From Escherichia phage teqskov, in the sequence record NC_054934.1: 64,000 nt of DNA. One strand, 5' to 3'. A model generated the notes under the pieces. The model was not told the DNA's origin. It saw only the letters and a list, made by a program, of their open reading frames with translations, and ran no database searches. How positions within the stretch are numbered: position 1 is the first letter of the stretch; each line of letters begins with the position of its first letter. Position numbers and translations under genes: made by a program. Positions 18,296-62,948 of the stretch are shown piece by piece.

Positions 18296-18368
18296 TGGGA
18301 ATTAGCCAAGTTGGTAAGGCATAGCACTTTGACTGCTAGATGCAAAGGTTCGAGTCCTTTATTCCCAG
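18296..18368 (+). tRNA. tRNA-Gln (anticodon UUG)
   Basis: cloverleaf read by hand: acceptor tgggaat/attccca, anticodon loop cTTTGac, T-loop ttcgagt. Confidence 0.8.
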
Positions 18369-18369
18369 C

Positions 18370-18456
18370 GCGAGAATGGTCAAATTGGTAAAGGCACAGC
18401 ACTTAAAATGCTGCGGAATGATTTCCTTGTGGGTTCGAGTCCCACTTCTCGCACCA
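18370..18456 (+). tRNA. tRNA-Leu (anticodon UAA), long variable arm, CCA encoded
   Basis: acceptor gcgagaa/ttctcgc, anticodon loop cTTAAaa, T-loop gggttcgagtccc. Confidence 0.8.
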
Positions 18457-18461
18457 AATTT

Positions 18462-18535
<74 letters not shown>

Positions 18536-18545
18536 ATTTAATTTA

Positions 18546-18619
18546 CTCCGTGTAGCTCAGTTTGGTAGAGCGTCTGCTTTGGGAGCAGAATGTCGTAGGT
18601 TCAAATCCTGCCGCGGAGA
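18546..18619 (+). tRNA. tRNA-Pro (anticodon UGG)
   Basis: acceptor ctccgtg/cgcggag (one G-U), anticodon loop tTTGGga. Confidence 0.75.
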
Positions 18620-18621
18620 CT

Positions 18622-18711
18622 GGAGGCGTGGCAGAGTGGTTTAATGCACCGGTCTTGAAAACCGGCAGTCGCTCCGGCGACTCATAGGTTCAAATCCTAT
18701 CGCCTCCGCCA
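18622..18711 (+). tRNA. tRNA-Ser (anticodon UGA), long variable arm, CCA encoded
   Basis: acceptor ggaggcg/cgcctcc, anticodon loop cTTGAaa. Confidence 0.8.
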
Positions 18712-18716
18712 GTTTT

Positions 18717-18792
18717 GCTGATTTAGCTCAGTAGGTAGAGCAGTTGACTGTTAATCAATTGGTCCATGGTTCGAATCCATGCATGTCCGCCA
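18717..18792 (+). tRNA. tRNA-like gene, probably chimeric or defective (anticodon position reads GUU)
   Basis: normal D, anticodon and T arms, but 5' acceptor gctgatt pairs with 3' catgtcc at only 3 of 7 positions. Confidence 0.5.
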
Positions 18793-18918
18793 AACTTGTG
18801 ACAGTTGTCACATTAATATCTACTTGACGCGATTATAGGGGTTGAACTGATCACACTTCTCTTAATTTCGTGTGAAGACATCTTGATTGTTGGAGTAGGT
18901 ATTGCTGTGAACTAATTA

Positions 18919-18995
18919 CGGGGTGTAACTCAATTGTATAGAGTAGCGGTCCTCTAAACCGCAGGTTAAAGGTTAGAATCCTTTCACCCTGACCA
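18919..18995 (+). tRNA. tRNA-Arg (anticodon UCU), CCA encoded
   Basis: acceptor cggggtg/caccctg, anticodon stem gcggt/accgc with loop ccTCTaa. Confidence 0.75.
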
Positions 18996-19571: not shown

Positions 19572-19859
19572 GTCGTCGGACTGATGTTCCCTGAGTAAGG
19601 AATTGCGTTAATAATCTTTGCGTTTATTGATGCCCTCTTACATCACAGCAGAAACGGCGCACCGAATTATCGATTCGAGGAAATATCTTTGCCGTAAGCC
19701 GAGTAGCGTTTTTGACGGAACGTTCGGATATGGTCGAGATATGGCCTTTTAAAAATATTGAGTAGCGTCAACTACTTAATAACCGGGTTCAAGTCCCGGC
19801 GTTTCGTACAAACACTTGCCTTAGCAGGTGGAACCCCGACAAGGTTGCCGCAAGGCTTA
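19572..19859 (+). ncRNA. probable stable RNA region (T4 species 1/2-like), boundaries not resolved
   Basis: non-coding, GC-richer, contains tRNA-like T-arm ccgggTTCAAGTcccgg; same position relative to tRNA-Arg as the T4 stable RNAs. Confidence 0.35.
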
Positions 19860-19886
19860 GCCCCGACCGAAAGGTTGGGGCTTTTT
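19860..19886 (+). terminator. rho-independent terminator
   Basis: 9-bp stem with GAAA loop (gccccgacc gaaa ggttggggc) followed by TTTTT. Confidence 0.7.
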
Positions 19887-24076: not shown

Positions 24077-24607
<531 letters not shown>

Positions 24608-24666: not shown

Positions 24667-25083
24667 ATGACTCGTATTAATTTGACTTTAGTATCTGAAC
24701 TTGCTGATCAACATTTAATCGCAGAATACCGTGAATTGCCACGTGTTTTTGGTATAGTTCGTAAGCATGTGGCAAACGGTAAGCGCGTTAAAGATTTTAA
24801 AATATCTTCCGAGTTTATTTTAGGTTCTGGTCATGTTACGTTCTTTTACGATAAGTTAGAATTTTTGCGAAAGCGTCAATTAGACATTATAACGGAATGC
24901 TTAAAACGAGGGTTCAGTATAAAAGATACTGAAGTTCCTGACATCAGCGATATTCCAGTAGAATGGAAAAATGATTATAATCCATGCAAATCAGCTATTA
25001 AATTGAGTCAACAACGACTTGATGAAAAAATTTTAATGAAACCACATTGGTATAAGTATTACGGTAAAAATATTTACATTTAA
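24667..25083 (+). CDS. denV: endonuclease V (pyrimidine dimer glycosylase) denV
   Basis: 138 aa; N-terminus [17 protein letters not shown] and overall pattern match remembered T4 endoV, with divergence in the C-terminal third. Confidence 0.9.
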
Positions 25084-25092
25084 AGGAAACAT

Positions 25093-25566
25093 ATGAAAAC
25101 ATATCAAGAATTTATCACTGAAGCAGCTATTAATTCTCAAATTATTGCTGAATCTTTTACCGATCTTTTGAAATTTAAAAAAGGTCAAAAAATCACTGCT
25201 GTATTGGATGATGGTACAGAAGTTGAGATGGATGTACAGGGATATAATTATGCAGTAGATGGAAAACTGTATAATAAATCTCATGCTAAATTTGATTCAT
25301 TTGACGACTTTGTTAATACAGTTGAAGATGAAAAAACTCGTAGATCCATTGCAACTGGTGATGCTAAGGTTCTTATGGCACATGGTCATGAACGCATTCG
25401 CGCTAAACAGAATAAAATGGGTGAAGATAATTTTGCATTAGTTGGTTATCAATCTGGTAAACAAACTTATGGCTATCAACGTACTGCTACCATGTATAAT
25501 AAAAATGGTAAAATCGCTTTCGTGAATAGTAAAGGTTCTATTCAGTACGTTAAATCGTTCAAATAA
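25093..25566 (+). CDS. internal-protein-like protein
   Basis: 157 aa; N-terminus MKTYQEFITEA matches the internal protein leader. Confidence 0.6.
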   Translation: MKTYQEFITEAAINSQIIAESFTDLLKFKKGQKITAVLDDGTEVEMDVQGYNYAVDGKLYNKSHAKFDSFDDFVNTVEDEKTRRSIATGDAKVLMAHGHERIRAKQNKMGEDNFALVGYQSGKQTYGYQRTATMYNKNGKIAFVNSKGSIQYVKSFK

Positions 25567-25706
25567 TATGGGAACAACCTGGACCTCATGATTCTATGAG
25601 GGATTCCCGCCAACCTGTAATAAGGTCGAGCCTGAGTGCGGTAATGGGTAAATACAGAAATGGACAATTCATGCGCCACGGAATGGCCCAAATTTAGAGA
25701 GAATAA

Positions 25707-26247
25707 AATGAGAACATTTTTAACTGGTCCTTATCTATCCCTGATGAATGCTTTTACACACCATTCTGACGCTAGAGTAGAAGAAATTTGTAAAAACGAA
25801 TATATCCCGCCATTTGAAGAATTACTTAAACAGTACTGCACACTTCGACTAGATGGTGGACGTCAATCTGGTAAATCAACTGCAGTAACTAATTTTGCCG
25901 CTAATTGGTTGTATGACGGTGGAACAGTTATTGTTCTTTCTAATACTTCAGCTTACGCTAAAATTTCTGCAAATAACATTAAAAAGGAATTTTCGCGTTA
26001 TTCTAATGATGATATACGTTTTCGTTTATTTACTGATTCTGTACGCAGTTTTATTGGTAATAAAGGAAGTAAGTTCAGAGGTTTATCGCTTTCGCGAATT
26101 TTGTATATAATTGACGAGCCTGTCAAATCTCCTGATATGGATAAGATTTATAGTGTCCATATTGACACTGTACACTGCTGCTGTAATATTAAATGTTGTA
26201 TTGGTGGTATTACTCGTCCACAGTTTTTCGTAATCGGAATGCAATGA
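25707..26247 (+). CDS. small P-loop NTPase-like protein
   Basis: 180 aa from ATG with SD; Walker A GGRQSGKST and Walker B-like ILYIIDEP. Confidence 0.5.
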
Positions 26248-26573
26248 TGACAGACACTCAGCTTTTCGAATATCTTTATTTTTCGCCAAAAACTATTAAA
26301 AATAAATTGGTGAATCATTTTGAAATTTTGGCAAATAATAACACTTTGAGCGAATTTTATCCCAAGCAATACAAATTACAAAAAGGTATATTCAAAGGAT
26401 GCAGAGTTTTGTGCACTGCTCCTAATGCACGGCTAATGAATAAAATTCCATATTTTACCATGGAATTTATTGATGGACCTTTTAAAGGATTAATTACCCA
26501 AAGTTTAATGGCATATGATTCTGAGCCATTTTTAATTAAAGAACAATCTTGGATAAATTTATTTTCTAATTGA
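26244..26573 (+). CDS. hypothetical protein
   Basis: 109 aa, ATG overlapping the upstream stop. Confidence 0.45.
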
Positions 26574-26580
26574 GGTTTAT

Positions 26581-26943
26581 ATGAAAGCATATCAAATTCT
26601 TGAAGGCACACATAAAGGCACTATTTATTTTGAAGATGGTATTCAAGCACGAATTATTGTCTCTAAAACCTTTAAAGAGGACTCTTTTGTAGACCCAGAA
26701 ATTTTCTACGGTTTGCATGCCCGTGAAATTGAAATTGAGCCACAGCCTACAGTTAAAATTGAAGGTGGTCAACACCTGAACGTTAACGTTCTGCGTCGTG
26801 AAACTCTGGAAGATGCAGTTAAGCATCCGGAAAAATATCCGCAGCTGACCATCCGTGTATCCGGTTATGCAGTTCGCTTTAACTCTCTGACTCCGGAACA
26901 GCAGCGCGACGTTATCGCTCGTACCTTCACCGAGAGTTTGTAA
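26581..26943 (+). CDS. autonomous glycyl radical cofactor (GrcA/YfiD-like)
   Basis: 120 aa; C-terminal about 60 aa ([60 protein letters not shown]) carries the RVSGY glycyl-radical motif. Confidence 0.8.
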
Positions 26944-27164
26944 TGGCAAAGATAATTATTGAAGGTTCTAAAGATGTGCTAAATGCTTTCGCCGAGTGGT
27001 TTAGTAATTCAGGCGAACAGCAATTTAACGAAGCGTGGAATATGGGTGATATTGATGGAATTTATCCTACTACAGAAATTTCTGTTCAGGGATATGGCAT
27101 TCATGAACCTATTCGTTTAGTTGAATACGATTTATGTACTGGTGAGGAAGTCAAATATGATTGA
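26943..27164 (+). CDS. hypothetical protein
   Basis: 73 aa ORF overlapping upstream stop. Confidence 0.5.
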   Translation: MAKIIIEGSKDVLNAFAEWFSNSGEQQFNEAWNMGDIDGIYPTTEISVQGYGIHEPIRLVEYDLCTGEEVKYD

Positions 27165-27453
27165 AGATATTAAAGGTTATAAGCCACATACCGACGAAAA
27201 AATCGGTAAAGTAAATGCTATTAAAGACGCTGAAGTTCGTTTAGGACTTATCTTTGATGCTTTATACGATGAATTTTGGGAAGCATTTGATAGCTGTGAA
27301 GATGATGAACTCGCGAAGAATTACGCCGAAAGCCTCGATCAGTTAACTATTGCTAAACGAAACTCAAAGAAGCCAGTATGTGGGCTTGTCGTGCAGTGTT
27401 CCAACCAGAGGAAAAATACTAATGGCTCAATTAAGTGCAGGGTTTGGTTATGA
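27157..27453 (+). CDS. hypothetical protein
   Basis: 98 aa from ATG overlapping previous stop; 3' end overlaps the next ORF in another frame. Confidence 0.4.
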
Positions 27454-27700
27454 GTATTATACTGCCCCTCGTCGTGTATCTGTCGCTCCTAAGAAAATTC
27501 AAAGTCTTGATGACTTCCAGGAAGTAGTCCGTAAAGCTTTCCAGGACTATGCACGTTATCTTAAAGAAGATTCACAGGACTGTCTCGAAGAAGATGAAAT
27601 TGCTTACTATGAGCAGCGTCTTGAACAGCTTAAAAACTTACATGAGGTTCGTGCAGAAGTTTCAAAGTCTATGAATAAATTGATTAGATTTAAAGAATAA
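27422..27700 (+). CDS. hypothetical protein
   Basis: 92 aa from ATG with purine-rich SD. Confidence 0.45.
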
Positions 27701-27702
27701 CT

Positions 27703-27732
27703 GTTTACTTTTCCTCTTGACTGTGGTATAAT
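27703..27732 (+). promoter_or_regulatory. early promoter upstream of regB
   Basis: GTTTAC, 18-nt spacer, TGgTATAAT. Confidence 0.55.
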
Positions 27733-27759
27733 TTTTCTATCAGTTAAGAGGAGAATAAC

Positions 27760-28221
27760 ATGACTATCAATACAGAAGTTTTTATCCGTCGAAATAAGCT
27801 TCGTCGTCACTTTGAGTCGGAGTTTCGTCAAATTAACAATGAGATTCGTGAGGCATCAAAAGCAGCAGGAGTCTCATCGTTTCATCTAAAATATTCTCAA
27901 CATCTTCTTGATCGTGCAATTCAACGGGAGATTGATGAGACATATGTTTTTGAATTATTCCATAAAATAAAAGACCATGTTTTAGAAGTTAATGAATTCC
28001 TGAGTATGCCTCCGCGTCCTGACATTGACGAGGATTTTATTGATGGGGTTGAATATCGTCCTGGACGTTTAGAAATCACAGATGGAAATCTTTGGCTTGG
28101 ATTTACGGTTTGTAAGCCTAATGAGAAGTTCAAAAACCCGTCACTTCAATGCAGGATGGCAATTATCAACAGTCGTCGTTTACCAGGAAAGGCTTCTAAA
28201 GCAGTAATTAAAACTCAATGA
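27760..28221 (+). CDS. regB: probable RegB site-specific endoribonuclease
   Basis: 153 aa (T4 RegB size), located upstream of vs.1/tk as in T4. Confidence 0.65.
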   Translation: MTINTEVFIRRNKLRRHFESEFRQINNEIREASKAAGVSSFHLKYSQHLLDRAIQREIDETYVFELFHKIKDHVLEVNEFLSMPPRPDIDEDFIDGVEYRPGRLEITDGNLWLGFTVCKPNEKFKNPSLQCRMAIINSRRLPGKASKAVIKTQ

Positions 28222-44078: not shown

Positions 44079-44552
44079 ATGTTATTGACTGGCAAATTAT
44101 ATAAAGAAGAAAAACAAAAATTTTATAATGCACAAAACGGTAAATGCTTAATTTGCCAACGAGAACTAAATCCTGATGTTCAAGCTAATCACCTCGATCA
44201 TGACCATGAATTAAATGGACCAAAAGCAGGAAAGGTACGTGGATTGCTTTGTAATCTCTGCAATGCTGCAGAAGGTCAAATGAAGCACAAATTTAATCGT
44301 TCTGGCTTAAAGGGACAAGGTGTTGATTATCTTGAATGGTTAGAAAATTTACTTACTTATTTAAAATCCGATTACACCCAAAATAATATTCACCCTAACT
44401 TTGTTGGAGATAAATCAAAGGAATTTTCTCGTTTAGGAAAAGAGGAAATGATGGCCGAGATGCTTCAAAGAGGATTTGAATATAATGAATCTGACACCAA
44501 AACACAATTAATAGCTTCATTCAAGAAGCAGCTTAGAAAGAGTTTAAAATGA
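44079..44552 (+). CDS. 49: endonuclease VII (Holliday junction resolvase) gp49
   Basis: 157 aa; zinc motif CLICQ ... HLDHDH; matches remembered T4 gp49. Confidence 0.85.
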   Translation: MLLTGKLYKEEKQKFYNAQNGKCLICQRELNPDVQANHLDHDHELNGPKAGKVRGLLCNLCNAAEGQMKHKFNRSGLKGQGVDYLEWLENLLTYLKSDYTQNNIHPNFVGDKSKEFSRLGKEEMMAEMLQRGFEYNESDTKTQLIASFKKQLRKSLK

Positions 44553-46366
44553 CAATTGAAAAAGAAATTGAAGGATTGATTCATAAAACTAATAAAGACC
44601 TTTTAAACGAGAATGCTAATAAAGATTCTCGTGTTTTTCCAACTCAACGGGACCTTATGGCTGGTATTGTGTCTAAACACATTGCCAAAAATATGGTCCC
44701 GTCTTTTATTATGAAAGCGCATGAAAGCGGAATTATTCATTTCCATGATATTGATTATTCCCCTGCTCTTCCATTTACTAATTGTTGTTTAGTAGATTTA
44801 AAAGGAATGCTTGAAAACGGATTTAAGCTAGGTAATGCGCAGATTGAAACTCCTAAATCAATTGGAGTTGCTACTGCAATTATGGCACAAATTACTGCGC
44901 AAGTTGCTTCTCACCAATACGGCGGAACGACTTTTGCGAATGTAGATAAAGTACTTTCTCCTTATGTTAAACGCACCTATGCAAAACATATTGAGGATGC
45001 AGAAAAATGGCAAATCGCTGATGCGTTGAATTATGCTCAATCTAAAACAGAAAAAGACGTATACGATGCATTTCAAGCTTATGAATATGAAGTAAATACT
45101 CTCTTTAGTTCAAACGGACAAACGCCTTTTGTAACAATTACATTTGGTACAGGAACTGACTGGACTGAACGAATGATTCAGAAAGCAATTCTGAAAAATC
45201 GTATTAAAGGTCTTGGTCGTGATGGGATAACTCCTATTTTCCCTAAGCTTGTTATGTTTGTTGAAGAAGGTGTTAATCTTTATAAAGACGATCCGAACTA
45301 TGATATTAAACAGCTTGCTCTAGAGTGCGCAAGCAAAAGAATGTATCCTGATATTATTTCAGCTAAGAACAATAAAGCTATCACTGGTTCATCTATTCCT
45401 GTTTCTCCGATGGGATGCCGTAGTTTCTTGAGCGTATGGAAAGATTCGACTGGTAATGAAATTCTTGATGGACGTAATAATCTTGGTGTTGTAACACTGA
45501 ATCTTCCTCGCATCGCGTTAGATTCTTATATTGGAACACAATTCAATGAACAGAAATTTATCGAATTGTTCAATGAACGAATGGATTTATGTTTTGAAGC
45601 ATTGATGTGTAGAATTAGTTCCTTAAAAGGAGTTAAAGCGACTGTTGCTCCTATTCTTTACCAAGAAGGTGCATTCGGGGTTCGTCTTAAACCTGATGAC
45701 GATATAATTGAGTTATTTAAAAACGGCAGAAGTTCAGTGTCTCTAGGATACATTGGTATTCACGAATTAAATATTCTTGTCGGTCGTGATATTGGACAAG
45801 AAATTTTAACTAAAATGAATGCTCATCTTAAGCAGTGGACTGAAAGAACCGGATTTGCTTTTAGTTTGTATTCTACTCCTGCTGAAAACCTTTGTTATCG
45901 CTTCTGTAAACTTGATACAGAAAAATATGGAAGTGTAAAGGATGTTACTGATAAAGGCTGGTACACTAACAGTTTTCATGTTTCAGTAGAAGAAAATATT
46001 ACTCCGTTTGAAAAGATTTCTCGTGAAGCGCCATATCATTTCATTGCGACAGGTGGTCACATTTCTTATGTTGAACTTCCTGATATGAAAAATAACTTAA
46101 AAGGTCTTGAGGCCGTGTGGGATTATGCTGCACAGCATTTAGATTATTTTGGTGTTAATATGCCAGTAGATAAGTGTTTTACATGCGGAAGCACCCATGA
46201 AATGACTCCTACTGAAAACGGATTTGTTTGTTCTATTTGTGGAGAAACTGATCCTAAAAAGATGAACACAATAAGAAGAACATGTGGTTATTTGGGAAAT
46301 CCGAACGAACGCGGATTTAATCTCGGTAAAAATAAAGAAATCATGCATAGGGTTAAACACCAATGA
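44549..46366 (+). CDS. nrdD: anaerobic ribonucleotide reductase NrdD, uninterrupted
   Basis: 605 aa; C-terminal glycyl radical region RTCGYLGN; continuous frame, no intron. Confidence 0.9.
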   Translation: MTIEKEIEGLIHKTNKDLLNENANKDSRVFPTQRDLMAGIVSKHIAKNMVPSFIMKAHESGIIHFHDIDYSPALPFTNCCLVDLKGMLENGFKLGNAQIETPKSIGVATAIMAQITAQVASHQYGGTTFANVDKVLSPYVKRTYAKHIEDAEKWQIADALNYAQSKTEKDVYDAFQAYEYEVNTLFSSNGQTPFVTITFGTGTDWTERMIQKAILKNRIKGLGRDGITPIFPKLVMFVEEGVNLYKDDPNYDIKQLALECASKRMYPDIISAKNNKAITGSSIPVSPMGCRSFLSVWKDSTGNEILDGRNNLGVVTLNLPRIALDSYIGTQFNEQKFIELFNERMDLCFEALMCRISSLKGVKATVAPILYQEGAFGVRLKPDDDIIELFKNGRSSVSLGYIGIHELNILVGRDIGQEILTKMNAHLKQWTERTGFAFSLYSTPAENLCYRFCKLDTEKYGSVKDVTDKGWYTNSFHVSVEENITPFEKISREAPYHFIATGGHISYVELPDMKNNLKGLEAVWDYAAQHLDYFGVNMPVDKCFTCGSTHEMTPTENGFVCSICGETDPKKMNTIRRTCGYLGNPNERGFNLGKNKEIMHRVKHQ

Positions 46367-46833
46367 ATTATGATAGATTTTATCCCTGTGATTTTGTGAA
46401 CGGCCCTGGATGCAGGGCCGTTCTTTTCGTTACAGGTTGTTTGCATAAATGCGAAGGGTGTTATAATAAATCAACATGGAATGCTAGAAATGGTATTCCA
46501 TTTACTGGTGAAACACTAGAACAATTGATTGAATGTTTGAATAATGATTATATAGAAGGATTGACTATAACTGGAGGTGACCCTCTCTATCCTGATAACC
46601 GAGATGTTATTCATTGCATTGTTCAAACTATTAAAAATCTTTATCCCAATAAAAGCATTTGGTTGTGGACAGGATATAAGTTTGAAGATATTAAACAACT
46701 AGAAATGCTTAAATATGTTGATGTTATTATTGATGGGAAGTATGAGAAAAATCTTCCGACCAAAAAGCTGTGGCGAGGATCAGATAATCAGCGACTTTGG
46801 TCAAATACCGATGGGGTGTGGACACATGATTAA
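46363..46833 (+). CDS. nrdG: anaerobic RNR activating protein NrdG
   Basis: 156 aa; radical-SAM-type cysteines CLHKCEGC. Confidence 0.85.
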   Translation: MNYDRFYPCDFVNGPGCRAVLFVTGCLHKCEGCYNKSTWNARNGIPFTGETLEQLIECLNNDYIEGLTITGGDPLYPDNRDVIHCIVQTIKNLYPNKSIWLWTGYKFEDIKQLEMLKYVDVIIDGKYEKNLPTKKLWRGSDNQRLWSNTDGVWTHD

Positions 46834-50868: not shown

Positions 50869-52071
50869 ATGAAAGTATGTATTTTTATGGCTCGAGGTCT
50901 TGAAGGTTGTGGTGTAACTAAATTTTCTCTTGAGCAACGTGATTGGTTTATTAAGAATGGTCATGAAGTAACTTTGGTTTATGCTAAAGATAAATCATTT
51001 ACTCGTAATTGCGCGCATGATTATAAATCATTTTCAATTCCGGTTTTATTGGCAAAAGAATATGATAAAACACTTAAGCTGGTAAATGATTGTGATATTC
51101 TAATTATCAATTCAGTTCCTGCTACTTCGGTTGAAGAAGACACTATTAATAACTATAAAAAAATTATTGATAACATTAAACCTTCTGTTCGTGTTGTAGT
51201 TTATCAACATGACCATTCTTCTCTTTCTTTGCGCCGAAATTTGGGATTAGAAGAAACTGTTCGTCGAGCTGATGTTATTTTTAGCCATTCTGATAATGGT
51301 GATTTTAATAAAGTTCTGATGAAAGAATGGTATCCTGAAACAGTTTCTCTGTTTGATGATATTGAAGAAGCACCGACAGTATATAACTTTCAGCCTCCTA
51401 TGGATATTGCGAAGGTTCGGTCAACCTACTGGAAAGATGTTTCTGAAATTAACATGAATATCAACCGTTGGATTGGTCGTACGACTACATGGAAAGGTTT
51501 TTATCAGATGTTTGATTTTCATGAAAAACATCTTAAACCTGCAGGACTAAGTACTATTATGGAAGGTCTGGAACGTTCTCCAGCGTTCATTCCTATTAAA
51601 GAAAAAGGAATTCCATACGAGTATTATCGTCTTCATCAAGTAGACCAAATTAAAATTGCTCCTAATTTGCCAACGCAAATTCTTGACCGTTATGTAAATA
51701 GCGAAATGCTTGAACGTATGAGTAAATCCGGTTTTGGTTATCAGCTGAGTAAGTTGGATAAAAAATATCTACAGCGCTCTTTAGAATATACTCATCTCGA
51801 GCTTGGTGCATGTGGAACAATTCCGGTATTTTGGAAATCTACTGGCGAAAATTTAAAATTCCGTGTTGATAATACTCCTTTGACCTCGCATGATAGCGGT
51901 ATCATTTGGTTTGATGAAAATGACATGGAATCAACATTTGAACGTATTAAAGAACTGTCATCTGATCGAACTCTTTATGACCGCGAACGCGAAAAAGCTT
52001 ATGAATTTTTGTATCAGCATCAAGATTCAAGCTTCTGCTTTAAAGAACAGTTTGACATTATTACAAAATAA
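50869..52071 (+). CDS. agt: DNA alpha-glucosyltransferase
   Basis: 400 aa; near-identical to remembered T4 alpha-gt (FMARGLEGCGVTKFSLEQRDWFIKNGHEVTLVYAKDKSF). Confidence 0.9.
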   Translation: MKVCIFMARGLEGCGVTKFSLEQRDWFIKNGHEVTLVYAKDKSFTRNCAHDYKSFSIPVLLAKEYDKTLKLVNDCDILIINSVPATSVEEDTINNYKKIIDNIKPSVRVVVYQHDHSSLSLRRNLGLEETVRRADVIFSHSDNGDFNKVLMKEWYPETVSLFDDIEEAPTVYNFQPPMDIAKVRSTYWKDVSEINMNINRWIGRTTTWKGFYQMFDFHEKHLKPAGLSTIMEGLERSPAFIPIKEKGIPYEYYRLHQVDQIKIAPNLPTQILDRYVNSEMLERMSKSGFGYQLSKLDKKYLQRSLEYTHLELGACGTIPVFWKSTGENLKFRVDNTPLTSHDSGIIWFDENDMESTFERIKELSSDRTLYDREREKAYEFLYQHQDSSFCFKEQFDIITK

Positions 52072-52087
52072 AGGGCTTCGGCCCTTT
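52071..52087 (+). terminator. hairpin aagggcTTCGgccctt
   Basis: GC stem with TTCG loop immediately after agt stop. Confidence 0.5.
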
Positions 52088-52110
52088 AGCTTTATACGGA
52101 GTTTGATATA

Positions 52111-52251
52111 ATGATATTTCTTGGATATGTGATACTTTTTCTCGCATTTTATCTATTCACTAGAGCATGTTGGATTGGATTCTTTAGCACTCCAGATGGA
52201 TTTATTTCAATAATTTTATTTTGCATTTCAATGACGGTTCTTGATATATGA
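52111..52251 (+). CDS. small membrane protein
   Basis: 46 aa hydrophobic ORF found by hand; stop overlaps gp47 start. Confidence 0.4.
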   Translation: MIFLGYVILFLAFYLFTRACWIGFFSTPDGFISIILFCISMTVLDI

Positions 52252-53267
52252 AAATTTTAAATTTAGGTGATTGGCATTTAGGCGTTAAAGCCGATGATGA
52301 GTGGGTTCAATCTATTCAGTTGGATGGAATTAAACAAGCAATAGAATATTCTAAGAAAAATGGAATTACTACATGGATTCAATATGGTGATATTTTTGAT
52401 GTGCGAAAAGCAATCACACATAAAACTATGGAGTTCGCTCGTGAAATAGTTCAAATGCTTGATGATGTTGGTATTACCCTGCATACTGTTGTAGGAAACC
52501 ATGATATGCACTTTAAAAATACTTTAACTCCAAATGCCTCTACTGAGCTTTTGGCTAAATATCCTAATGTTAAAGTATATGATAAGCCTACTACAGTAGA
52601 TTTTGACGGATGTTTAATTGATTTAATTCCTTGGATGTGTGAAGAAAATACTGGTGAAATTCTCGAGCACATAAAAACTTCTTCTGCTTCTTTTTGTGTT
52701 GGTCACTGGGAACTGAATGGATTTTATTTTTATAAAGGAATGAAATCTCACGGTCTTGAACCTGATTTCCTTAAGACTTATAAAGAGGTGTGGTCTGGTC
52801 ACTTCCATACTATTTCTGAGGCTGCAAACGTCAGATATATTGGGACACCATGGACACTAACTGCAGGTGACGAGAATGACCCTCGCGGGTTCTGGATGTT
52901 TGATACAGAAACAGAACGAATGGAATTTATTCCAAACAACACTACCTGGCATCGTAGAATTCATTATCCATTTAAAGGAAAAATTGACTATAAAGATTTT
53001 ACAAATCTATCAGTACGTGTTATAGTAACTGAAGTAGACAAAAATCTAACGAAGTTCGAATCTGAACTAGAAAAAGTTGTGCATTCGTTACGAGTTGTGT
53101 CAAAGATTGATAACTCTGTCGAGTCAGATGACAGCGAAGAGGTTGAAGTTCAATCGCTTCAGACATTGATGGAAGAATACATTAATGCAATTCCAGACAT
53201 CACTGATTCTGACCGTGAAGCACTTATTCAATATGCAAATCAGCTATATGTAGAGGCAACACAATGA
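52248..53267 (+). CDS. 47: recombination endonuclease subunit gp47 (Mre11-like)
   Basis: 339 aa; phosphoesterase motifs GDWHLG, GDIFD, GNHD, GHWE. Confidence 0.9.
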   Translation: MKILNLGDWHLGVKADDEWVQSIQLDGIKQAIEYSKKNGITTWIQYGDIFDVRKAITHKTMEFAREIVQMLDDVGITLHTVVGNHDMHFKNTLTPNASTELLAKYPNVKVYDKPTTVDFDGCLIDLIPWMCEENTGEILEHIKTSSASFCVGHWELNGFYFYKGMKSHGLEPDFLKTYKEVWSGHFHTISEAANVRYIGTPWTLTAGDENDPRGFWMFDTETERMEFIPNNTTWHRRIHYPFKGKIDYKDFTNLSVRVIVTEVDKNLTKFESELEKVVHSLRVVSKIDNSVESDDSEEVEVQSLQTLMEEYINAIPDITDSDREALIQYANQLYVEATQ

Positions 53268-53527
53268 CTTTTGATGAATTTAAAAATGTTATGATGAGTC
53301 AGCATTTTGAATGCGAAGTAAAAGATGATATTGGTCATAAAGAAATTATTGAATATTGGTTTGAACCGCTAGAGGTTGAAGATAATTGTATTAAAAAGGT
53401 TACAGTCTGCACTGACTGGGCTGTATCTTTTAACTTCAACATTTTAGATAATGACACACCTAAATCATTACGAGATATGGCTGTATCTTGTATTAAGGAT
53501 GCATACTGTGAAGTTTTCGACATTTGA
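53264..53527 (+). CDS. hypothetical protein
   Basis: 87 aa ORF. Confidence 0.5.
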   Translation: MTFDEFKNVMMSQHFECEVKDDIGHKEIIEYWFEPLEVEDNCIKKVTVCTDWAVSFNFNILDNDTPKSLRDMAVSCIKDAYCEVFDI

Positions 53528-53714
53528 CATTAATGATGAATTCATAGCAAACATTGATTATACCGAAGAAGATTCTAGATATGTTGGAATAATTTATATT
53601 ACATCAAAAACAGCACAAGGTGTTGTTTGCATGGCTGAATTTGATGAATACTTTTTAGATTATGATGATATGATAGAATGGTCTAAAAGATACATTAAAA
53701 GGAATCTTTTGTGA
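53499..53714 (+). CDS. hypothetical protein
   Basis: 71 aa from internal ATG. Confidence 0.4.
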   Translation: MHTVKFSTFDINDEFIANIDYTEEDSRYVGIIYITSKTAQGVVCMAEFDEYFLDYDDMIEWSKRYIKRNLL

Positions 53715-55393
53715 AGAATTTTAAACTAAACCGAGTTAGGTATCAAAATATAATGTCAGTAGGTGGAAATCCTATTGACATTCAATTAGATAAGGTTCAA
53801 AAAACTCTTATTACTGGCCGAAATGGCGGTGGTAAGTCTACTATGTTAGAAGCCATCACATTTGGGCTTTTTGGCAAGCCATTTCGTGATGTAAAGAAAG
53901 GTCAATTAATAAACAGCACAAATAAGAAAGAACTTTTAGTTGAATTGTGGATGGAATATGATGAGAAAAAGTACTATATCAAAAGAGGACAAAAACCAAA
54001 CGTTTTCGAAATCACCGTTAACGGTACACGTCTTAATGAATCTGCCAGCAGTAAAGATTTCCAAGCAGAATTTGAACAGCTTATCGGAATGTCATATGCC
54101 AGTTTCAAGCAGATTGTTGTTCTTGGTACAGCAGGGTATACCCCTTTCATGGGTTTGTCTACCCCTGCGCGAAGAAAGCTTGTGGAAGACCTGCTTGAGG
54201 TAGGAACATTAGCTGAAATGGATAAGCTTAATAAAGCACTAATACGTGAATTAAATTCACAAAACCAAGTGCTTGATGTTAAAAAAGATAGTATTATCCA
54301 ACAGATTAAAATATATAATGATAACGTTGAACGCCAGAAAAAATTAACTGGTGACAATCTTACTCGTCTGCAAAATATGTATGATGATTTGGCAAAAGAA
54401 GCTAGAACGCTAAAATCGGAAATAGAAGAAGCTAATGAAAGATTAGTTAATATTGTTTTAGACGAAGACCCGACTGATGCATTTAATAAAATCGGTCAAG
54501 AAGCAGTTTTAATTAAATCAAAAATTGACTCGTACAATAAAGTCATTAATATGTATCACGAAGGTGGATTATGTCCAACCTGTTTGTCACAATTAAGTTC
54601 CGGTGATAAAGTTGTTTCTAAAATTAAAGATAAAGTTTCTGAATGTACGCATTCGTTTGAACAGCTTTCAACACATCGTGATAATTTAAAAGTTCTTGTT
54701 GATGAATACCGAGATAATATTAAAACCCAACAGTCGTTGGCAAATGATATTCGCAATAAAAAGCAATCTCTAATCACGACGGTAGATAAAGCCAAAAAAG
54801 TTAAAGCAGCTATAGAAAAAGCATCTTCTGAGTTTATTGACCATGCTGATGAAATAGCACTGCTTCAAGAAGAACTTGATAAAATTGTTAAGACAAAAAC
54901 TAATTTAGTAATGGAAAAATACCACCGAGGAATTTTGACTGATATGCTCAAAGATTCTGGTATTAAAGGTGCTATTATTAAAAAGTACATTCCATTATTT
55001 AATAAGCAGATTAACCATTATCTTAAAATAATGGAAGCGGATTATGTGTTTACATTAGATGAAGAATTTAATGAGACAATTAAATCCCGTGGTCGTGAAG
55101 ATTTTAGTTATGCTTCATTCAGTCAAGGTGAAAAAGCACGAATTGATATTGCTCTTTTATTTACTTGGCGTGATATTGCTGAAAAAGTTTCAGGTGTTAA
55201 AATAAACACGTTAATTCTTGACGAAGTTTTTGATTCAGCGACCGATGTTGAAGGTGTAAAAGCTATTTCAACTATTTTAGATAGTTTAAAAAATACTAAT
55301 GTTTTTGTTATTTCGCATAGAGACCATGACCCACAAGCATATGGTCAGCACCTTCAAATGAAGAAAGTTGGTCGATTTACTGTAATGGTTTAA
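53711..55393 (+). CDS. 46: recombination endonuclease subunit gp46 (Rad50/SbcC-like), GTG start
   Basis: 560 aa; Walker A GRNGGGKST, central coiled coil with CPTC zinc hook, Walker B LILDEVFD. Confidence 0.9.
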   Translation: MKNFKLNRVRYQNIMSVGGNPIDIQLDKVQKTLITGRNGGGKSTMLEAITFGLFGKPFRDVKKGQLINSTNKKELLVELWMEYDEKKYYIKRGQKPNVFEITVNGTRLNESASSKDFQAEFEQLIGMSYASFKQIVVLGTAGYTPFMGLSTPARRKLVEDLLEVGTLAEMDKLNKALIRELNSQNQVLDVKKDSIIQQIKIYNDNVERQKKLTGDNLTRLQNMYDDLAKEARTLKSEIEEANERLVNIVLDEDPTDAFNKIGQEAVLIKSKIDSYNKVINMYHEGGLCPTCLSQLSSGDKVVSKIKDKVSECTHSFEQLSTHRDNLKVLVDEYRDNIKTQQSLANDIRNKKQSLITTVDKAKKVKAAIEKASSEFIDHADEIALLQEELDKIVKTKTNLVMEKYHRGILTDMLKDSGIKGAIIKKYIPLFNKQINHYLKIMEADYVFTLDEEFNETIKSRGREDFSYASFSQGEKARIDIALLFTWRDIAEKVSGVKINTLILDEVFDSATDVEGVKAISTILDSLKNTNVFVISHRDHDPQAYGQHLQMKKVGRFTVMV

Positions 55394-55448
55394 TTTATAA
55401 GAGATTATGCTTTAATTTATTAGAGTATAATCTCTATGGAGGAAAAAC

Positions 55449-55637
55449 ATGGAATATTCAACTGGACAGCATCTATTAACTATTCCTGAAATAAAACGAT
55501 ATATTCTGAGAAATAATTTTTCTAATGAAGAGCATATAGTTACTGAATCTATGCTTAGGAATGCATTTAAAGCAGAATATACAAAAATAATGTCCAATAG
55601 AAATGAAGCTTGGACTGTTACTGATTATTATGACTAA
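55449..55637 (+). CDS. hypothetical protein (45.2 position)
   Basis: 62 aa ORF. Confidence 0.5.
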   Translation: MEYSTGQHLLTIPEIKRYILRNNFSNEEHIVTESMLRNAFKAEYTKIMSNRNEAWTVTDYYD

Positions 55638-55646
55638 AGGTGTATT

Positions 55647-56036
55647 ATGACTAAAATTACTGTGAATTATACTGTTGATGTAAAAGATATTCAGCCAAAA
55701 CACGTGCGTTCTGAATCAAATCCACAAAACCAAAATAAAATCCGTCGAGCATGGGTTTTGTCTCTTTCTGATAACGCAATGGAAGTTATTCAGAACAAAA
55801 TTAAATCTGCACCTGCTCGTCATGCGTATTATGAAGCTATCGATCGTGAAGTAAGTAATAAATGGATTGAACTAATGCGCAAACATACTACAGAATCCCT
55901 AAACGCCGGTGCTAAATTTATTATGACTTCATGCGGTGAACGTCTTGAAGATGATTATTGCGGTAATGCAGATGAACGTCTAATTGTTGCTGCTCAAATT
56001 GTTGCGGAAACAATTGCGGCTGATTTTAATCGTTAA
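55647..56036 (+). CDS. rpbA: RNA polymerase binding protein RpbA
   Basis: 129 aa ORF between 45.2 and 45 positions. Confidence 0.65.
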
Positions 56037-56091
56037 TTGCTTTATTAAATTAGTTATAAAATTAAATCTCATTTGAATTGAAGGAAATTAC

Positions 56092-56778
56092 ATGAAACTG
56101 TCTAAAGATACTACTGCTCTGCTTAAAAATTTCGCTACTATTAACTCCGGTATTATGCTTAAATCCGGTCAATTTATTATGACTCGCGCAGTTAATGGTA
56201 CAACTTATGCGGAAGCAAATATTTCTGACGTTATTGATTTTGATGTAGCAATTTACGATTTGAACGGTTTTCTCGGTATTCTGTCTCTAGTTAATGATGA
56301 TGCAGAAATTTCCCAGTCAGAAGATGGAAATATTAAAATTGCTGATGCTCGTTCAACAATTTTTTGGCCAGCAGCCGATCCGAGTACAGTAGTTGCTCCT
56401 AATAAACCAATTCCATTCCCGGTAGCATCTGTTGTTACTGAAATTAAAGCTGAAGACCTTCAACAACTGTTGCGTGTATCTCGTGGTCTGCAAATTGATA
56501 CAATTGCTATCACGGTAAAAGAAGGTAAAATCGTAATTAACGGTTTTAATAAAGTAGAAGATTCTGCTCTGACCCGTGTTAAATATTCTTTGACTCTTGG
56601 TGATTATGATGGTGAAAATACATTTAATTTCATTATCAATATGGCAAATATGAAAATGCAACCAGGAAATTATAAACTTCTGCTTTGGGCAAAAGGTAAA
56701 CAAGGCGCTGCTAAATTTGAAGGTGAACATGCGAATTATGTAGTAGCTCTTGAAGCTGATTCTACCCACGATTTTTAA
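56092..56778 (+). CDS. 45: sliding clamp gp45
   Basis: 228 aa (T4 gp45 size); synteny with 44/62. Confidence 0.9.
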   Translation: MKLSKDTTALLKNFATINSGIMLKSGQFIMTRAVNGTTYAEANISDVIDFDVAIYDLNGFLGILSLVNDDAEISQSEDGNIKIADARSTIFWPAADPSTVVAPNKPIPFPVASVVTEIKAEDLQQLLRVSRGLQIDTIAITVKEGKIVINGFNKVEDSALTRVKYSLTLGDYDGENTFNFIINMANMKMQPGNYKLLLWAKGKQGAAKFEGEHANYVVALEADSTHDF

Positions 56779-56780
56779 TA

Positions 56781-56800
56781 AAGGGCTTCGGCCCTTTATA
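56781..56800 (+). terminator. rho-independent terminator
   Basis: aagggcTTCGgcccttt after gene 45 stop. Confidence 0.6.
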
Positions 56801-56829
56801 ATTTACACTAAAACTTGAATGAGGAAATT

Positions 56830-57789
56830 ATGATTACCGTAAATGAAAAAGAACACATTCTTGAACAGAAATATCGTCCATCTACTATCGATGAATGTAT
56901 TCTTCCCGCCTTTGATAAAGAAACCTTTAAATCTATTACAAGTAAAGGTAAGATTCCACATATTATTCTTCATTCTCCTTCTCCAGGAACAGGTAAAACA
57001 ACTGTAGCGAAAGCATTGTGTCATGATGTAAATGCTGATATGATGTTTGTGAATGGGTCAGATTGTAAAATTGATTTCGTTCGTGGTCCTTTGACTAATT
57101 TTGCCAGTGCAGCTTCATTTGATGGTCGTCAAAAAGTAATCGTTATTGATGAATTTGACCGCTCAGGGTTAGCAGAGTCTCAGCGACATCTTCGTTCCTT
57201 TATGGAAGCTTATAGTTCAAACTGTAGTATTATTATTACTGCTAACAATATTGATGGTATTATTAAACCGCTTCAGTCACGCTGCCGAGTTATTACATTC
57301 GGTCAACCGACCGATGAAGATAAAATTGAAATGATGAAGCAGATGATTCGTCGATTGACTGAAATCTGCAAGCATGAAGGAATTGCTATAGCTGATATGA
57401 AAGTTGTAGCAGCTTTAGTTAAAAAGAATTTTCCTGATTTTCGTAAAACTATTGGCGAGCTCGATAGTTATTCATCTAAAGGTGTTTTGGATGCTGGTAT
57501 TTTATCATTGGTTACTAACGATCGTGGTGCTATTGATGATGTTCTTGAGTCTCTCAAAAATAAAGATGTTAAACAACTCAGAGCTTTAGCACCAAAATAT
57601 GCAGCTGATTATTCGTGGTTCGTGGGTAAACTTGCCGAAGAAATCTATTCACGTGTAACTCCACAAAGTATTATTCGTATGTACGAAATTGTTGGTGAAA
57701 ATAATCAGTATCATGGTATTGCAGCTAATACTGAATTGCATTTAGCTTATCTTTTCATTCAATTAGCATGTGAAATGCAGTGGAAGTGA
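56830..57789 (+). CDS. 44: clamp loader large subunit gp44
   Basis: 319 aa from ATG; Walker [11 protein letters not shown]; Walker B IVIDEFD; SRC motif. Confidence 0.9.
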
Positions 57790-57790
57790 T

Positions 57791-58354
57791 ATGAGCTTAT
57801 TTCAAGATGATATTCAATTAAACGAGCATCAAGTTGCTTGGTATTCTAAAGATTGGACAGCTGTCCAATCTGCTGCTGATACTTTTAAAGAAAAAGCTGA
57901 AAATGAATTTTTTGAAATAATTGGAGCTATTAATAATAAAACTAAATGCTCTATTGCTCAAAAAGATTATTCAAAATTCATGGTTGAAAATGCATTATCA
58001 CAATTTCCAGAGTGCATGTCAGCTGTATATGCTATGAATTTAATTGGATCAGGCTTAAGTGATGAAGCTCATTTTAATTATCTAATGGCTGCAGTTCCTC
58101 GTGGTAAAAGATATGGTAAATGGGCAAAACTAGTTGAAGATTCCACCGAAGTATTGATTATTAAGTTACTTGCTAAGCGGTATCAAGTTAATACAAATGA
58201 TGCAATTAACTATAAATCAATTCTTACTAAAAATGGAAAACTACCTTTAGTATTAAAAGAACTTAAAGGATTAGTCACGGATGATTTTTTGAAAGAAGTG
58301 ACTAAGAACGTAAAAGAACAGAAACAACTCAAAAAACTAGCATTGGAATGGTAA
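57791..58354 (+). CDS. 62: clamp loader small subunit gp62
   Basis: 187 aa from MSLFQDD; overlaps gene 44 stop. Confidence 0.85.
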
Positions 58355-58355
58355 A

Positions 58356-58724
58356 ATGATTGAAATTACTCTTAAAAAACCTGAAGATTTTCTGAAAGTA
58401 AAAGAAACTTTGACTCGTATGGGAATTGCTAATAATAAAGATAAAGTTCTGTATCAGTCCTGTCATATTCTTCAGAAAAAAGGACTATACTATATCGTTC
58501 ATTTTAAAGAAATGCTTCGTATGGATGGTCGCCAGGTTGAAATGACAGAAGAAGATGAAGTTCGTCGTGATTCGATTGCATGGCTATTAGAAGATTGGGG
58601 ACTGATTGAAATCGTCCCTGGTCAAAGAACTTTTATGAAAGATTTAACTAATAACTTCCGAGTTATTTCTTTTAAACAAAAACATGAATGGAAACTCGTT
58701 CCTAAATATACGATTGGTAATTAA
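58356..58724 (+). CDS. regA: translational repressor RegA
   Basis: 122 aa; size and position between 62 and 43. Confidence 0.85.
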   Translation: MIEITLKKPEDFLKVKETLTRMGIANNKDKVLYQSCHILQKKGLYYIVHFKEMLRMDGRQVEMTEEDEVRRDSIAWLLEDWGLIEIVPGQRTFMKDLTNNFRVISFKQKHEWKLVPKYTIGN

Positions 58725-58725
58725 T

Positions 58726-58947
58726 ATGACTGCTATAACTCCACAAGAATACATGGCGTCTCTTAAAGAAAAATATAATCTTTCTGCAACAGAAACACTT
58801 TTTGATTTACCAGAAAACCTCCAACTAAAATTTCAGGTAGAATTTCAAAAATTAATTCATCCAGAACAAAAACACTTTACCGCAGTCGTTAAGTCAATTA
58901 ATGCAGATGGAATGACAATTTTTCACCGACAAATAGTACTAATTTAA
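58726..58947 (+). CDS. hypothetical protein
   Basis: 73 aa ORF between regA and gene 43. Confidence 0.45.
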   Translation: MTAITPQEYMASLKEKYNLSATETLFDLPENLQLKFQVEFQKLIHPEQKHFTAVVKSINADGMTIFHRQIVLI

Positions 58948-58949
58948 GC

Positions 58950-58970
58950 AAGGGGCTTCGGCCCCTTATT
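58950..58970 (+). terminator. hairpin aaggggcTTCGgcccctt
   Basis: GC stem with TTCG loop, then ATTT. Confidence 0.5.
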
Positions 58971-59027
58971 TGGAGTATAATATATATCAAGAGCCTAATA
59001 ACTCGGGCTATAAACTAAGGAATATCT

Positions 59028-61724: not shown

Positions 61725-61736
61725 TAGAATAAATCT

Positions 61737-61758
61737 AGGGACCTCCGGGTCCCTTTTT
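61737..61758 (+). terminator. rho-independent terminator
   Basis: agggaccTCCGggtccct followed by TTTTT. Confidence 0.7.
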
Positions 61759-61841
61759 CATACAAGTAATATAAATCTATACTTATGAAAAACAGATGAT
61801 TCTGGACCTTTAGAATTCCCTAAAAAATTTTTCACAAAACT

Positions 61842-61871
61842 GTTTACAAGACTGTTCCTCTGTGGTATTAT
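61842..61871 (+). promoter_or_regulatory. early promoter cassette (PeSL-like)
   Basis: tagaattccctaaaaaattttttcacaaaactGTTTACaag ... tgGTATTATacaactatcaactactgatacag. Confidence 0.55.
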
Positions 61872-61908
61872 ACAACTATCAACTACTGATACAGATTTGG
61901 AGAATAAA

Positions 61909-62145
61909 ATGAAAATTGTTATGGGATGCTTAGCAGTTTGTTTAGTTGCATTAGCAGCAGTTCCATTTGTTAGTGTTGAAAATGATACTCAACCTGTGAT
62001 TGAATCTAGCACCGTTATTCACACTAATGGTAAAATATCAGTTAAAATTGATGATAATCTTCATGTGAATACAAATGGATCTTTAGGTGTGCAAATGGGT
62101 AATACCTGCATAAGCACTACTGGAGTAATTACTACTTGCATTTGA
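61909..62145 (+). CDS. small secreted protein
   Basis: 78 aa from ATG after SD GGAG; N-terminal signal-like MKIVMGCLAVCLVALAAVPF. Confidence 0.5.
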   Translation: MKIVMGCLAVCLVALAAVPFVSVENDTQPVIESSTVIHTNGKISVKIDDNLHVNTNGSLGVQMGNTCISTTGVITTCI

Positions 62146-62155
62146 GGAAATTATT

Positions 62156-62536: not shown

Positions 62537-62543
62537 GGAAAAC

Positions 62544-62795: not shown

Positions 62796-62941
62796 AAAGC
62801 AAAATTTTAGCAGTATTGCTTTTAATCTTGATGATTATAATAAGTATATACTATAGCGTAACAGTTCCTCTTATGATTCCGCCACTTATTATAGGTTGGA
62901 GTTTATTACTGTTACAAGTTAAATATGAATGCATCAATTGA
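62792..62941 (+). CDS. small membrane protein
   Basis: 49 aa hydrophobic ORF found by hand; ATG overlaps imm stop. Confidence 0.4.
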   Translation: MKSKILAVLLLILMIIISIYYSVTVPLMIPPLIIGWSLLLLQVKYECIN

Positions 62942-62948
62942 GGTTTAA

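Follow-up and report, generated by a model that had tools for sequence, protein, structure and literature searches.

A tract identical to Escherichia coli grcA within vs.6, a GrcA-like gene of the T4-type phage teqskov

Only two 'spare-part' proteins have been validated, YfiD (GrcA) of Escherichia coli and Y06I, the product of gene vs.6 of phage T4 (PMC8683613). According to that source, both restore pyruvate formate-lyase (PFL) that has been cleaved by oxygen (Knappe and co-workers; Wagner et al. 2001, PMID 11444864), and restoration follows installation of the radical by the PFL-activating enzyme together with formation of a complex with cleaved PFL. Residues 1–60 of YfiD are disordered, yet they are required for binding of cleaved PFL and for radical installation; residues 61–127 have the fold of PFL residues 693–759, within which G734 is the glycyl-radical residue (PMC8683613). 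A second relevant system is cyanophage psbA/psbD, in which statistically supported intragenic recombination between host and phage, with patchy base composition, has been described for T4-like phages (Zeidner 2005; Sullivan et al. 2006, PMC1484495). The subject here is vs.6 in a stretch of 64,000 nucleotides (nt) from Escherichia phage teqskov (NC_054934.1), called the window throughout. The original prediction for this DNA was of a GrcA-like glycyl-radical gene at 26581–26943 with a 3′ half acquired by recombination with the host. The gene is very probably a phage GrcA/YfiD spare part for host PFL, with its domain half overwritten by E. coli grcA.

The gene and its parts, in window positions, are as follows.

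26581–26943, + strand: coding sequence (CDS) of vs.6/Y06I, 120 amino acids (aa) plus stop, phage autonomous glycyl-radical cofactor (open reading frame (ORF) listing, Pfam, comparison with T4)
26581–26758, + strand: phage-type, AT-rich 5′ half, comprising codons 1–59 plus one base of codon 60 and corresponding to the disordered N-terminal arm of GrcA (guanine-plus-cytosine (GC) content 35.4 %)
26759–26927, + strand: very probably host-derived tract, 169 nt, 100 % identical to E. coli grcA (GrcA codons 67–123), most of the structured glycyl-radical domain (blastn, pairwise alignment, MaxChi, GC)
26863–26865, + strand: GGT codon of Gly95, the predicted glycyl-radical site, in an RVSGY motif (GrcA G102, PflB G734; alignment to PflB 697–759 and YfiD)
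26928–26943, + strand: phage-type tail, from the third base of codon 116 through the stop, with GAGAG upstream of the ATG of the next gene, which overlaps the stop (TAATG) (alignment)

That the gene is GrcA-like is borne out by a Pfam Gly_radical match (E = 2.8e-18), by a match to the nuclear magnetic resonance structure of E. coli YfiD/GrcA (PDB 6owr, E = 8.6e-42), and by identity of vs.6 residues 61–120 to GrcA residues 68–127, 60 aa without a difference; the peptide quoted in the original prediction is residues 92–120. The domain also aligns with the C-terminus of PflB (residues 697–759, E = 5e-26). With respect to the GrcA/YfiD family (IPR011140; TIGR04365), whose members are stand-alone proteins of approximately 120–130 aa, the vs.6 product is 120 aa long, has its own ribosome-binding site and stop, is flanked on both sides by separate phage genes, carries a PFL-type C-terminal glycyl-radical domain with RVSGY, and has an N-terminal arm homologous to GrcA residues 1–60 by profile–profile comparison. 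The window is that of a T4-type phage (Tequatrovirus): the 1.5 kb around vs.6 are 99.2 % identical to Escherichia phage AndreasVesalius and 93–98 % identical to hundreds of T-even genomes, and the gene itself differs from T4 vs.6 (AF158101, 63557–63919) by 7 of its 363 nt and by a single residue, position 73 being R in the window and H in T4.

When vs.6 was compared by blastn with 5,426 complete E. coli genomes, only query bases 179–363 (26759–26943) aligned, at 97.3 % identity, and they did so in every genome; the 5′ half gave no match to grcA in these genomes. In pairwise alignment to E. coli grcA, positions 26759–26927 form a run of 169 consecutive identical bases, for which the probability at 85 % identity is approximately 1e-12 by our own arithmetic. 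MaxChi placed a breakpoint at aligned column 175 (chi2 = 109.9), with 48.6 % identity to its left and 97.3 % to its right. None of 1000 permutations reached 109.9, the highest permuted value being 19.7.

Base composition changes with the alignment. The tract has a GC content of 49.7 %, whereas the 5′ half has 35.4 % and the whole window 34.8 %, and only 0.26 % of 169-nt segments are as GC-rich as the tract, the others lying in a cluster of transfer RNA (tRNA) genes (18296–18995) and at 19697–19885. GC at third codon positions (GC3) is 0.47 in the tract and 0.24 in the 5′ half; among the phage copies that carry an E. coli-type 3′ part (the 'patch') it is 0.43–0.47 in the patch and 0.13–0.28 in the 5′ half. 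In E. coli grcA itself GC3 is uniform along the gene (0.43 and 0.42). The original prediction had placed a compositional change at about 26760, with E. coli-like codon usage beyond it and a C-terminus of some 60 codons essentially identical to GrcA. The exact start of the tract is 26759, the GC3 values agree with the codon usage described, and the C-terminal identity extends over 60 aa and 169 nt. Alignment of the 3′ half to grcA, which it had put forward as a check, gives 97.3 % identity against approximately 49 % in the 5′ half.

Megablast of window positions 1–25000, 26950–51900 and 51901–64000 against the same E. coli genomes returned no match; the vs.6 tract is the sole E. coli match among the searched parts of the 64-kb window. 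A vs.6/GrcA homologue is present in 1,587 phage records, and in 641 phage records of INPHARED the E. coli-type patch is at least 95 % identical to the E. coli sequence, 389 of these being within 1–2 mismatches. Among Tevenvirinae, a patch is carried by approximately 750 genomes. T4 has the same 5′ junction, as do hundreds of independent genomes. When the last 185 nt are compared, the grcA genes of Citrobacter, Klebsiella and Salmonella depart from that of E. coli at 15, 23 and 28 positions, respectively (counted from the alignment), whereas the phage tract differs from E. coli grcA at none within its length, and the donor is therefore assigned to Escherichia. Over the same 185 nt, the phage copies are separated by at least 20 differences from grcA of Citrobacter, Trabulsiella, Pseudocitrobacter and Salmonella. 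The locus thus has the marks of a psbA-type mosaic, namely a supported breakpoint with one segment far nearer to the host, a shift to host-like GC and codon usage, and a donor lineage that is the host of the phage. Recombination with host grcA is the sole explanation that fits both the sharp breakpoint and 169 nt of exact identity.

The 5′ half retains a relationship to GrcA of its own. When N-terminal halves only were compared between phage and bacteria with hhalign, the probability was 97.3 % (E = 2.1e-11, 28 % identity over 60 columns), and metagenomic phage homologues nearest to Pasteurellaceae grcA have intermediate N-termini. Beyond the tract, the tail has 5 mismatches to E. coli, spread singly over the last five codons, none of which changes an amino acid (TTC ACC GAG AGT TTG vs TTT ACT GAA AGC CTG), and its codons GAG AGT are common to vs.6 and distant T4-like phages; the GAGAG/GAGG motif so formed is probably the ribosome-binding site of the downstream gene. 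The 5′ exchange point falls within a conserved GTTGAAGGTGGTCAACA block and the 3′ point in the last 16 nt, so both are intragenic. Because the N-terminal halves are homologous, a tail of 3–5 codons is of phage type, and other phage homologues encode nearly the same domain with 27–55 nucleotide differences, a complete phage grcA homologue predates the transfer. The event is best described as a gene-conversion-like overlay on a complete, diverged phage grcA homologue and not as a fusion to an unrelated phage ORF. The recombination with host grcA proposed in the original prediction holds for the 3′ half, with the refinement that the recipient was a fully homologous phage copy.

In this course of events, an old AT-rich, full-length phage grcA homologue had the part that encodes its structured domain overwritten by the E. 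coli allele. The route was recombination with the DNA of E. coli, homologous and at first homeologous, or gene conversion by it. Within infected cells, the UvsX-dependent recombination of T4 readily swaps short stretches of homology with DNA that contains cytosine, and by analogy such exchange may be the mechanism by which the tract was installed and refreshed. Exchange of a short homologous segment is also what occurs in T4 marker rescue and plasmid–phage recombination; there, however, the setting is the laboratory and the donor is cloned phage DNA, whereas for vs.6 the donor would be a host chromosomal gene in nature. T4, as the textbook virulent phage, is usually said to degrade host DNA and to share no DNA sequence with its host. 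The vs.6 tract shows that in nature even T-even phages take up host sequence by homologous exchange.

Compared with the systems introduced above, vs.6 of the window is the same gene as T4 Y06I, at the same genomic position and with the same host-identical tract, but T4 has H73 where the window phage and E. coli have R73, and its tract extends approximately 9 nt further 3′ (TTT ACT GAA, the host form); the accessible literature on Y06I covers protein function and not the mosaic, host-derived DNA. The gene shares with E. coli GrcA/YfiD (6owr; TIGR04365) the arrangement of an N-terminal arm and a C-terminal domain that mimics PflB 693–759. It differs in that its N-terminal half is only approximately 28 % identical and 7 residues shorter, and in being expressed from a phage early-region gene cluster instead of the grcA locus. 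Cyanophage psbA/psbD is likewise a case of a host-derived metabolic gene in T4-like phages with recombination between host and phage copies. In vs.6, however, the tract is perfectly host-identical over 169 nt with base-precise boundaries, the tract occurs in the best-studied virulent coliphage, T4, and the product is a repair 'spare part' and not a core enzyme subunit.

The same mosaic architecture with a different patch is found in Klebsiella phages of the genus Jiaodavirus (PKO111, W14-2, Shinkou, KPV15 and two metagenome contigs). GC3 in these phages is 0.55–0.62 in the 3′ part and 0.16–0.26 in the 5′ half, and the patch encodes LLDAVEH, the Klebsiella/Salmonella type, where the E. coli type is LEDAVKH. 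The 3′ part differs from the nearest Klebsiella-type allele at 17–26 of 185 positions, approximately 6 of which are in the phage-specific tail, and the patch differs from the E. coli-type phage patch at 17–29. The 5′ boundary is identical in the two kinds of patch. Each of the two patches resembles the gene of its own host group more than it resembles the patch of the other phages, which requires a minimum of two transfers from host to phage in Tevenvirinae, one of E. coli type (Tequatrovirus, Mosigvirus) and one of Klebsiella type (Jiaodavirus).

As to function, the tract begins at GrcA codon 67, six codons inside the boundary of the structured domain (residue 61). It thereby takes in the greater part of the domain that fits inside PflB of the host and on which the host's PflA acts, with the flexible arm as the phage-specific part. 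Two genes of anaerobic nucleotide metabolism bear on this point.

44549–46366, + strand: NrdD, anaerobic ribonucleotide reductase (Pfam NRDD, E = 1.8e-171)
46363–46833, + strand: NrdG, radical-SAM activase of NrdD (Pfam Fer4_12, E = 4.2e-48; Radical_SAM, E = 1.1e-07)

No PflA homologue is encoded in the window, the phage NrdG being the activase of NrdD, and the vs.6 protein therefore has to rely on the PflA and PflB of its host; this reliance explains why the pressure to match the host domain is strong. After infection by T4-type phages the expression of host genes is shut off, and under such a shut-off the phage would supply the spare part itself. The host PFL-activating enzyme would install the glycyl radical on the vs.6 protein, which would then dock on oxygen-cleaved PFL and bring its activity back. 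In microaerobic, gut-like conditions PFL could in this way be kept running, sustaining acetyl-CoA and ATP production, and the sustained formate could serve as reductant for the phage's own NrdD. The original prediction had given the protein the role of a spare glycyl-radical domain in general. The part of that role which concerns PFL is known for T4 Y06I (PMC8683613), and the part which concerns phage NrdD was not upheld (see below).

Several points weigh against the account of a host-overwritten, PFL-directed spare part that exchanges with its host. The NCBIfam equivalog TIGR04365 has a cut-off of 170 bits, which vs.6 (153.3) does not reach and E. coli GrcA (233.9) does; the vs.6 alignment begins at profile position 25 because its N-terminus has diverged, and the gene is better classed in a phage subfamily (PHROG 1209) of GrcA-like proteins than as a strict equivalog. 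Rescue of oxygen-cleaved PFL by the window protein would follow by analogy with the T4 protein, from which it differs at one residue (R73 vs H73), and the benefit by way of formate and NrdD is a presumed one. The nearest sampled donors of the Jiaodavirus patch, unlabelled Klebsiella-type alleles (L249, L104, L102), are only approximately 93 % identical within it. For repeated conversion the case is statistical, drawn from about a dozen sequences and coarse identity bands. All E. coli-type phages have one 5′ breakpoint, which fits a single transfer with phage–phage spread too. Additionally, single nucleotide polymorphisms (SNPs) in the phage patch coincide with E. coli SNPs at 5 sites (192, 195, 219, 237 and 282), where approximately 3 are expected by chance, and the overlap is not significant.

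The last of these points bear on whether the tract was acquired once or is still being exchanged. A single transfer from E. coli into an ancestor common to Tequatrovirus and Mosigvirus, after which the tract would have spread solely by vertical descent and phage–phage recombination, with no continuing exchange with the host chromosome, is a serious contender, though judged slightly less probable than even. It would account for the exactly shared 5′ breakpoint and the lack of a significant SNP overlap, for patch SNPs that are common to several phages (e.g. 195T in L006, JK45 and tp13), and for the retention of an E. coli tract by Yersinia-propagated Tequatroviruses (fPS-90, 100 % identity). However, the patch is less diverged than the 5′ half between the genera. 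Tequatrovirus-type and Mosigvirus-type copies have 9–13 synonymous differences in the 5′ half and 0–6 in the patch, and the window and phage copy L007 differ at 10 synonymous positions in the 5′ half and at none in the patch. The opposite imbalance is seen between JK45 and L007, with 0 differences in the 5′ half and 6 in the patch. Across INPHARED, identity to the 5′ half of the window is under 95 % in 145 records, whereas the E. coli-type patch falls below 95 % in only 2, and many phages of both genera match the modern E. coli consensus at 100 % identity.

Phages also vary in where the host-identical tract stops on its 3′ side: the window reads TTC ACC GAG AGT TTG, L003 begins TTT ACC, T4 reads TTT ACT GAA AGT TTG and L004 reads TTT ACT GAG AGT CTG. 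Nor does the shared 5′ boundary favour a single transfer in particular, as it is expected under repeated conversion also, because homology ends there, and the independent Klebsiella-type patch stops at the same place. Together these patterns fit repeated conversion by host grcA, or recombination among co-infecting phages, and do not fit simple vertical descent. It is about an even call whether a tract that is already identical to the chromosome goes on to recombine with it repeatedly, in the manner of marker rescue, and is thereby kept host-matched. The stronger proposition, that the glycyl-radical domain is continually re-templated from the chromosome of the current host, so that a virulent phage evolves in concert with a host gene, is put forward tentatively, as somewhat more likely to be wrong than right. 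If it were true, the tract would provide a natural and measurable readout of how genes flow from a host chromosome into a virulent phage and would document which hosts the phage had lately grown in, and different phage genera would carry the allele of their own host (E. coli type vs Klebsiella type).

Proof of several E. coli donor alleles was sought in the patch SNPs and rejected, as the SNP overlap is not significant; these SNPs are suggestive only. The 192G variant (CAG vs the common CAA) is the grcA allele of E. coli O157:H7 (L253) and is also carried by phage copy L002, and approximately 1,084 of the 5,426 E. coli genomes are within 2 mismatches of the L002 patch. Both L002 SNPs together occur in none of the 5,426.

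A different target for the protein, in which vs.6 would be a spare glycyl-radical domain for phage NrdD activated by phage NrdG, had been raised in the original prediction and is very improbable. NrdD and NrdG are both encoded in the window, and there is speculation in the field on spare parts for other glycyl-radical enzymes (PMC8683613). In Aeromonas phage PX29 (GU396103; L251:1359–4947), moreover, the vs.6 homologue lies inside the nrd cluster directly after nrdD–nrdG, in the order nrdD–nrdG–vs.6–nrdC–nrdH, with the start of vs.6 overlapping the end of nrdG. However, BLASTP of vs.6 against the window NrdD found no similarity, and the vs.6 domain does not resemble the NrdD C-terminus in the manner of a class III reductase spare part. 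The NrdD radical region consists of a zinc ribbon followed by RRTCGYLG, whereas the vs.6 domain is GrcA-identical and PFL-type, as its alignment to PflB 697–759 indicates. The PX29 homologue is PFL-type as well, ending in RTFTQSM, the C-terminal peptide of E. coli PflB. The sole experimental evidence concerns PFL (PMC8683613). Direct repair of NrdD by vs.6 was rejected on the lack of BLASTP similarity and the difference in domain type.

A metabolic link between vs.6 and NrdD through formate, and not a physical one, is more plausible, because PFL makes the formate used by class III reductases. Formate is the reductant of most characterised enzymes of this class, and a formate site has been discussed for T4 NrdD (PMC4493059). 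The PX29 synteny is equally explained by PFL-supplied formate, and supports a shared anaerobic-nucleotide context, not direct NrdD repair.

Identity without any transfer, through extreme purifying selection and convergent codon optimisation for E. coli, has in its favour the extreme conservation of the domain protein across phage and bacterial homologues, and is nevertheless scarcely credible. In RB43-like phages the C-terminal residues are identical, but 27–31 of 185 nt are not those of the nearest host allele, and T5-like and RB49-like E. coli phages differ at 36–50 of 185. Taken together, KP15-like, CC31-like, RB43-like, RB49-like and T5-like copies encode nearly the same domain at 27–55 of 185 nt from the nearest host allele and with lower GC3, the CC31-like phages (Karamvirus) having an AT-rich version without a patch. 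The synonymous differences in RB43-like, T5-like and RB49-like phages therefore show that protein selection does not fix synonymous sites. The change in vs.6 is also abrupt, within a base or two, and not gradual.

GrcA-like genes were seen in two further groups of phages, the T5-like Demerecviridae (L043–L069, L252:4001–4369), where they lie inside the tRNA-gene region, and jumbo phages of 345–357 kb (L026, L028 and L029), such as Yersinia phage fHe-Yen9-04. The copies in both groups lack a host-identical tract and are 45–50 of 185 nt from the nearest host allele.

A chimeric assembly or contamination of the window with host DNA is likewise a negligible prospect. Such chimeras do occur, as a metagenome contig described below runs from a phage 5′ half through the tract into the grcA terminator and flank; in the window, however, the phage-type tail and the overlapping phage gene resume directly after the tract, and the T4 reference shows this mosaic too, as do hundreds of isolates that were sequenced independently. 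Transfer in the reverse direction, with E. coli taking the 3′ half of grcA from a T-even phage, has nothing beyond the shared sequence to commend it and can be set aside, given that the tract has the composition and codon usage of the host and not the phage, that grcA is compositionally uniform with orthologues of graded divergence across Enterobacterales and Pasteurellaceae, and that the tract is in all 5,426 E. coli genomes.

The chimeric contig (L171; OCHD01000040.1, 170,927 bp, 168434–169587) came from a metagenome scan for T-even copies, which returned mostly bacterial grcA and only 5 phage loci; its yield was useful for extra host alleles and not for phage haplotypes, and L171 was excluded as a chimera. 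In this contig the phage vs.6 5′ half and the tract are followed by the grcA stop, terminator and chromosomal flank, and not by vs.5. The junction is near the contig end and is most likely an assembler join across the identical tract of at least 169 nt.

With recombination from host grcA retained as the origin of the tract, the gene and its biochemical role are already known, and its mosaic origin appears unreported in the searchable literature, where no mention of a vs.6 mosaic or of host-identical DNA was found, earlier notice in key T4 papers being possible. In earlier comparative work nothing beyond the Gly_radical match was remarked on, and a role in nucleotide metabolism was offered as a guess (PMC1524935). 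The vs.6 gene is a new example of host–phage intragenic recombination, of interest for its precision, its near-coincidence with a structural domain boundary, its presence in T4 and its experimental tractability. The exchange replaced most of the domain that fits host PflB and is recognised by PflA, and left the phage arm intact. The tract offers a simple experimental system for measuring host-to-phage gene conversion and a host-specific signature in T4-like genomes, and it explains phage–host chimeric contigs in metagenome assemblies, of which one was found. The annotation of a biochemically characterised gene can also be corrected: PHROG 1209 is labelled 'unknown function', and GenBank names for vs.6 are inconsistent, including hypothetical protein, pyruvate formate-lyase, 2-ketobutyrate formate-lyase and acetyltransferase, with GrcA in many records.

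The surroundings of vs.6 are those of the denV to regB interval of T4, in which the map order is vs.7, vs.6, vs.5; the orientation of the window is the reverse of the T4 map. The remaining features of the region are as follows.

24113–24607: lysozyme gene e
24667–25083: denV
26565–26568, + strand: GAGG Shine–Dalgarno sequence, 12 nt (a long spacing) before the vs.6 ATG at 26581, in the sequence ...aattGAGGtttatATG
26943–27164, + strand: downstream ORF of 73 aa at the position of T4 vs.5, its start overlapping the vs.6 stop (PHROG 1986, E = 1.3e-43; T4 gene order)

A promoter and terminator scan of 25000–27800 gave a match count not above the shuffled expectation.

Three phage copies have unusual structures. 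In Klebsiella phage KPV15 (L027:600–965) the 5′ half lacks 1 nt of an A/T run, so that the gene is split into two annotated CDS; this represents either a pseudogene or a sequencing error. A 6-nt in-frame insertion in Escherichia phage vB_VIPECOOM03 (L164) lengthens the EIEIE repeat. The match of the patch query to phage vB_Eco_Some is broken into two pieces that span 248 nt, as a partial internal duplication might produce.

Elsewhere in the window, ARAGORN called six tRNA genes at 18296–18995 (Gln, Leu, Gly, Pro, Ser and Arg), and Rfam added a seventh, partial tRNA-like match at 18724–18781 without an ARAGORN call. The GC-rich stretch at 19697–19885 lies between ORFs and matches no Rfam family at the gathering threshold. 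At the position of T4 vs.8, the ORF at 25660–26247 encodes 195 aa of PHROG 1488 (unknown function), and has a weak match to the ATPase region of the large terminase (phrog_2, E = 3e-6) and a P-loop-like motif, GGRQSGKST.

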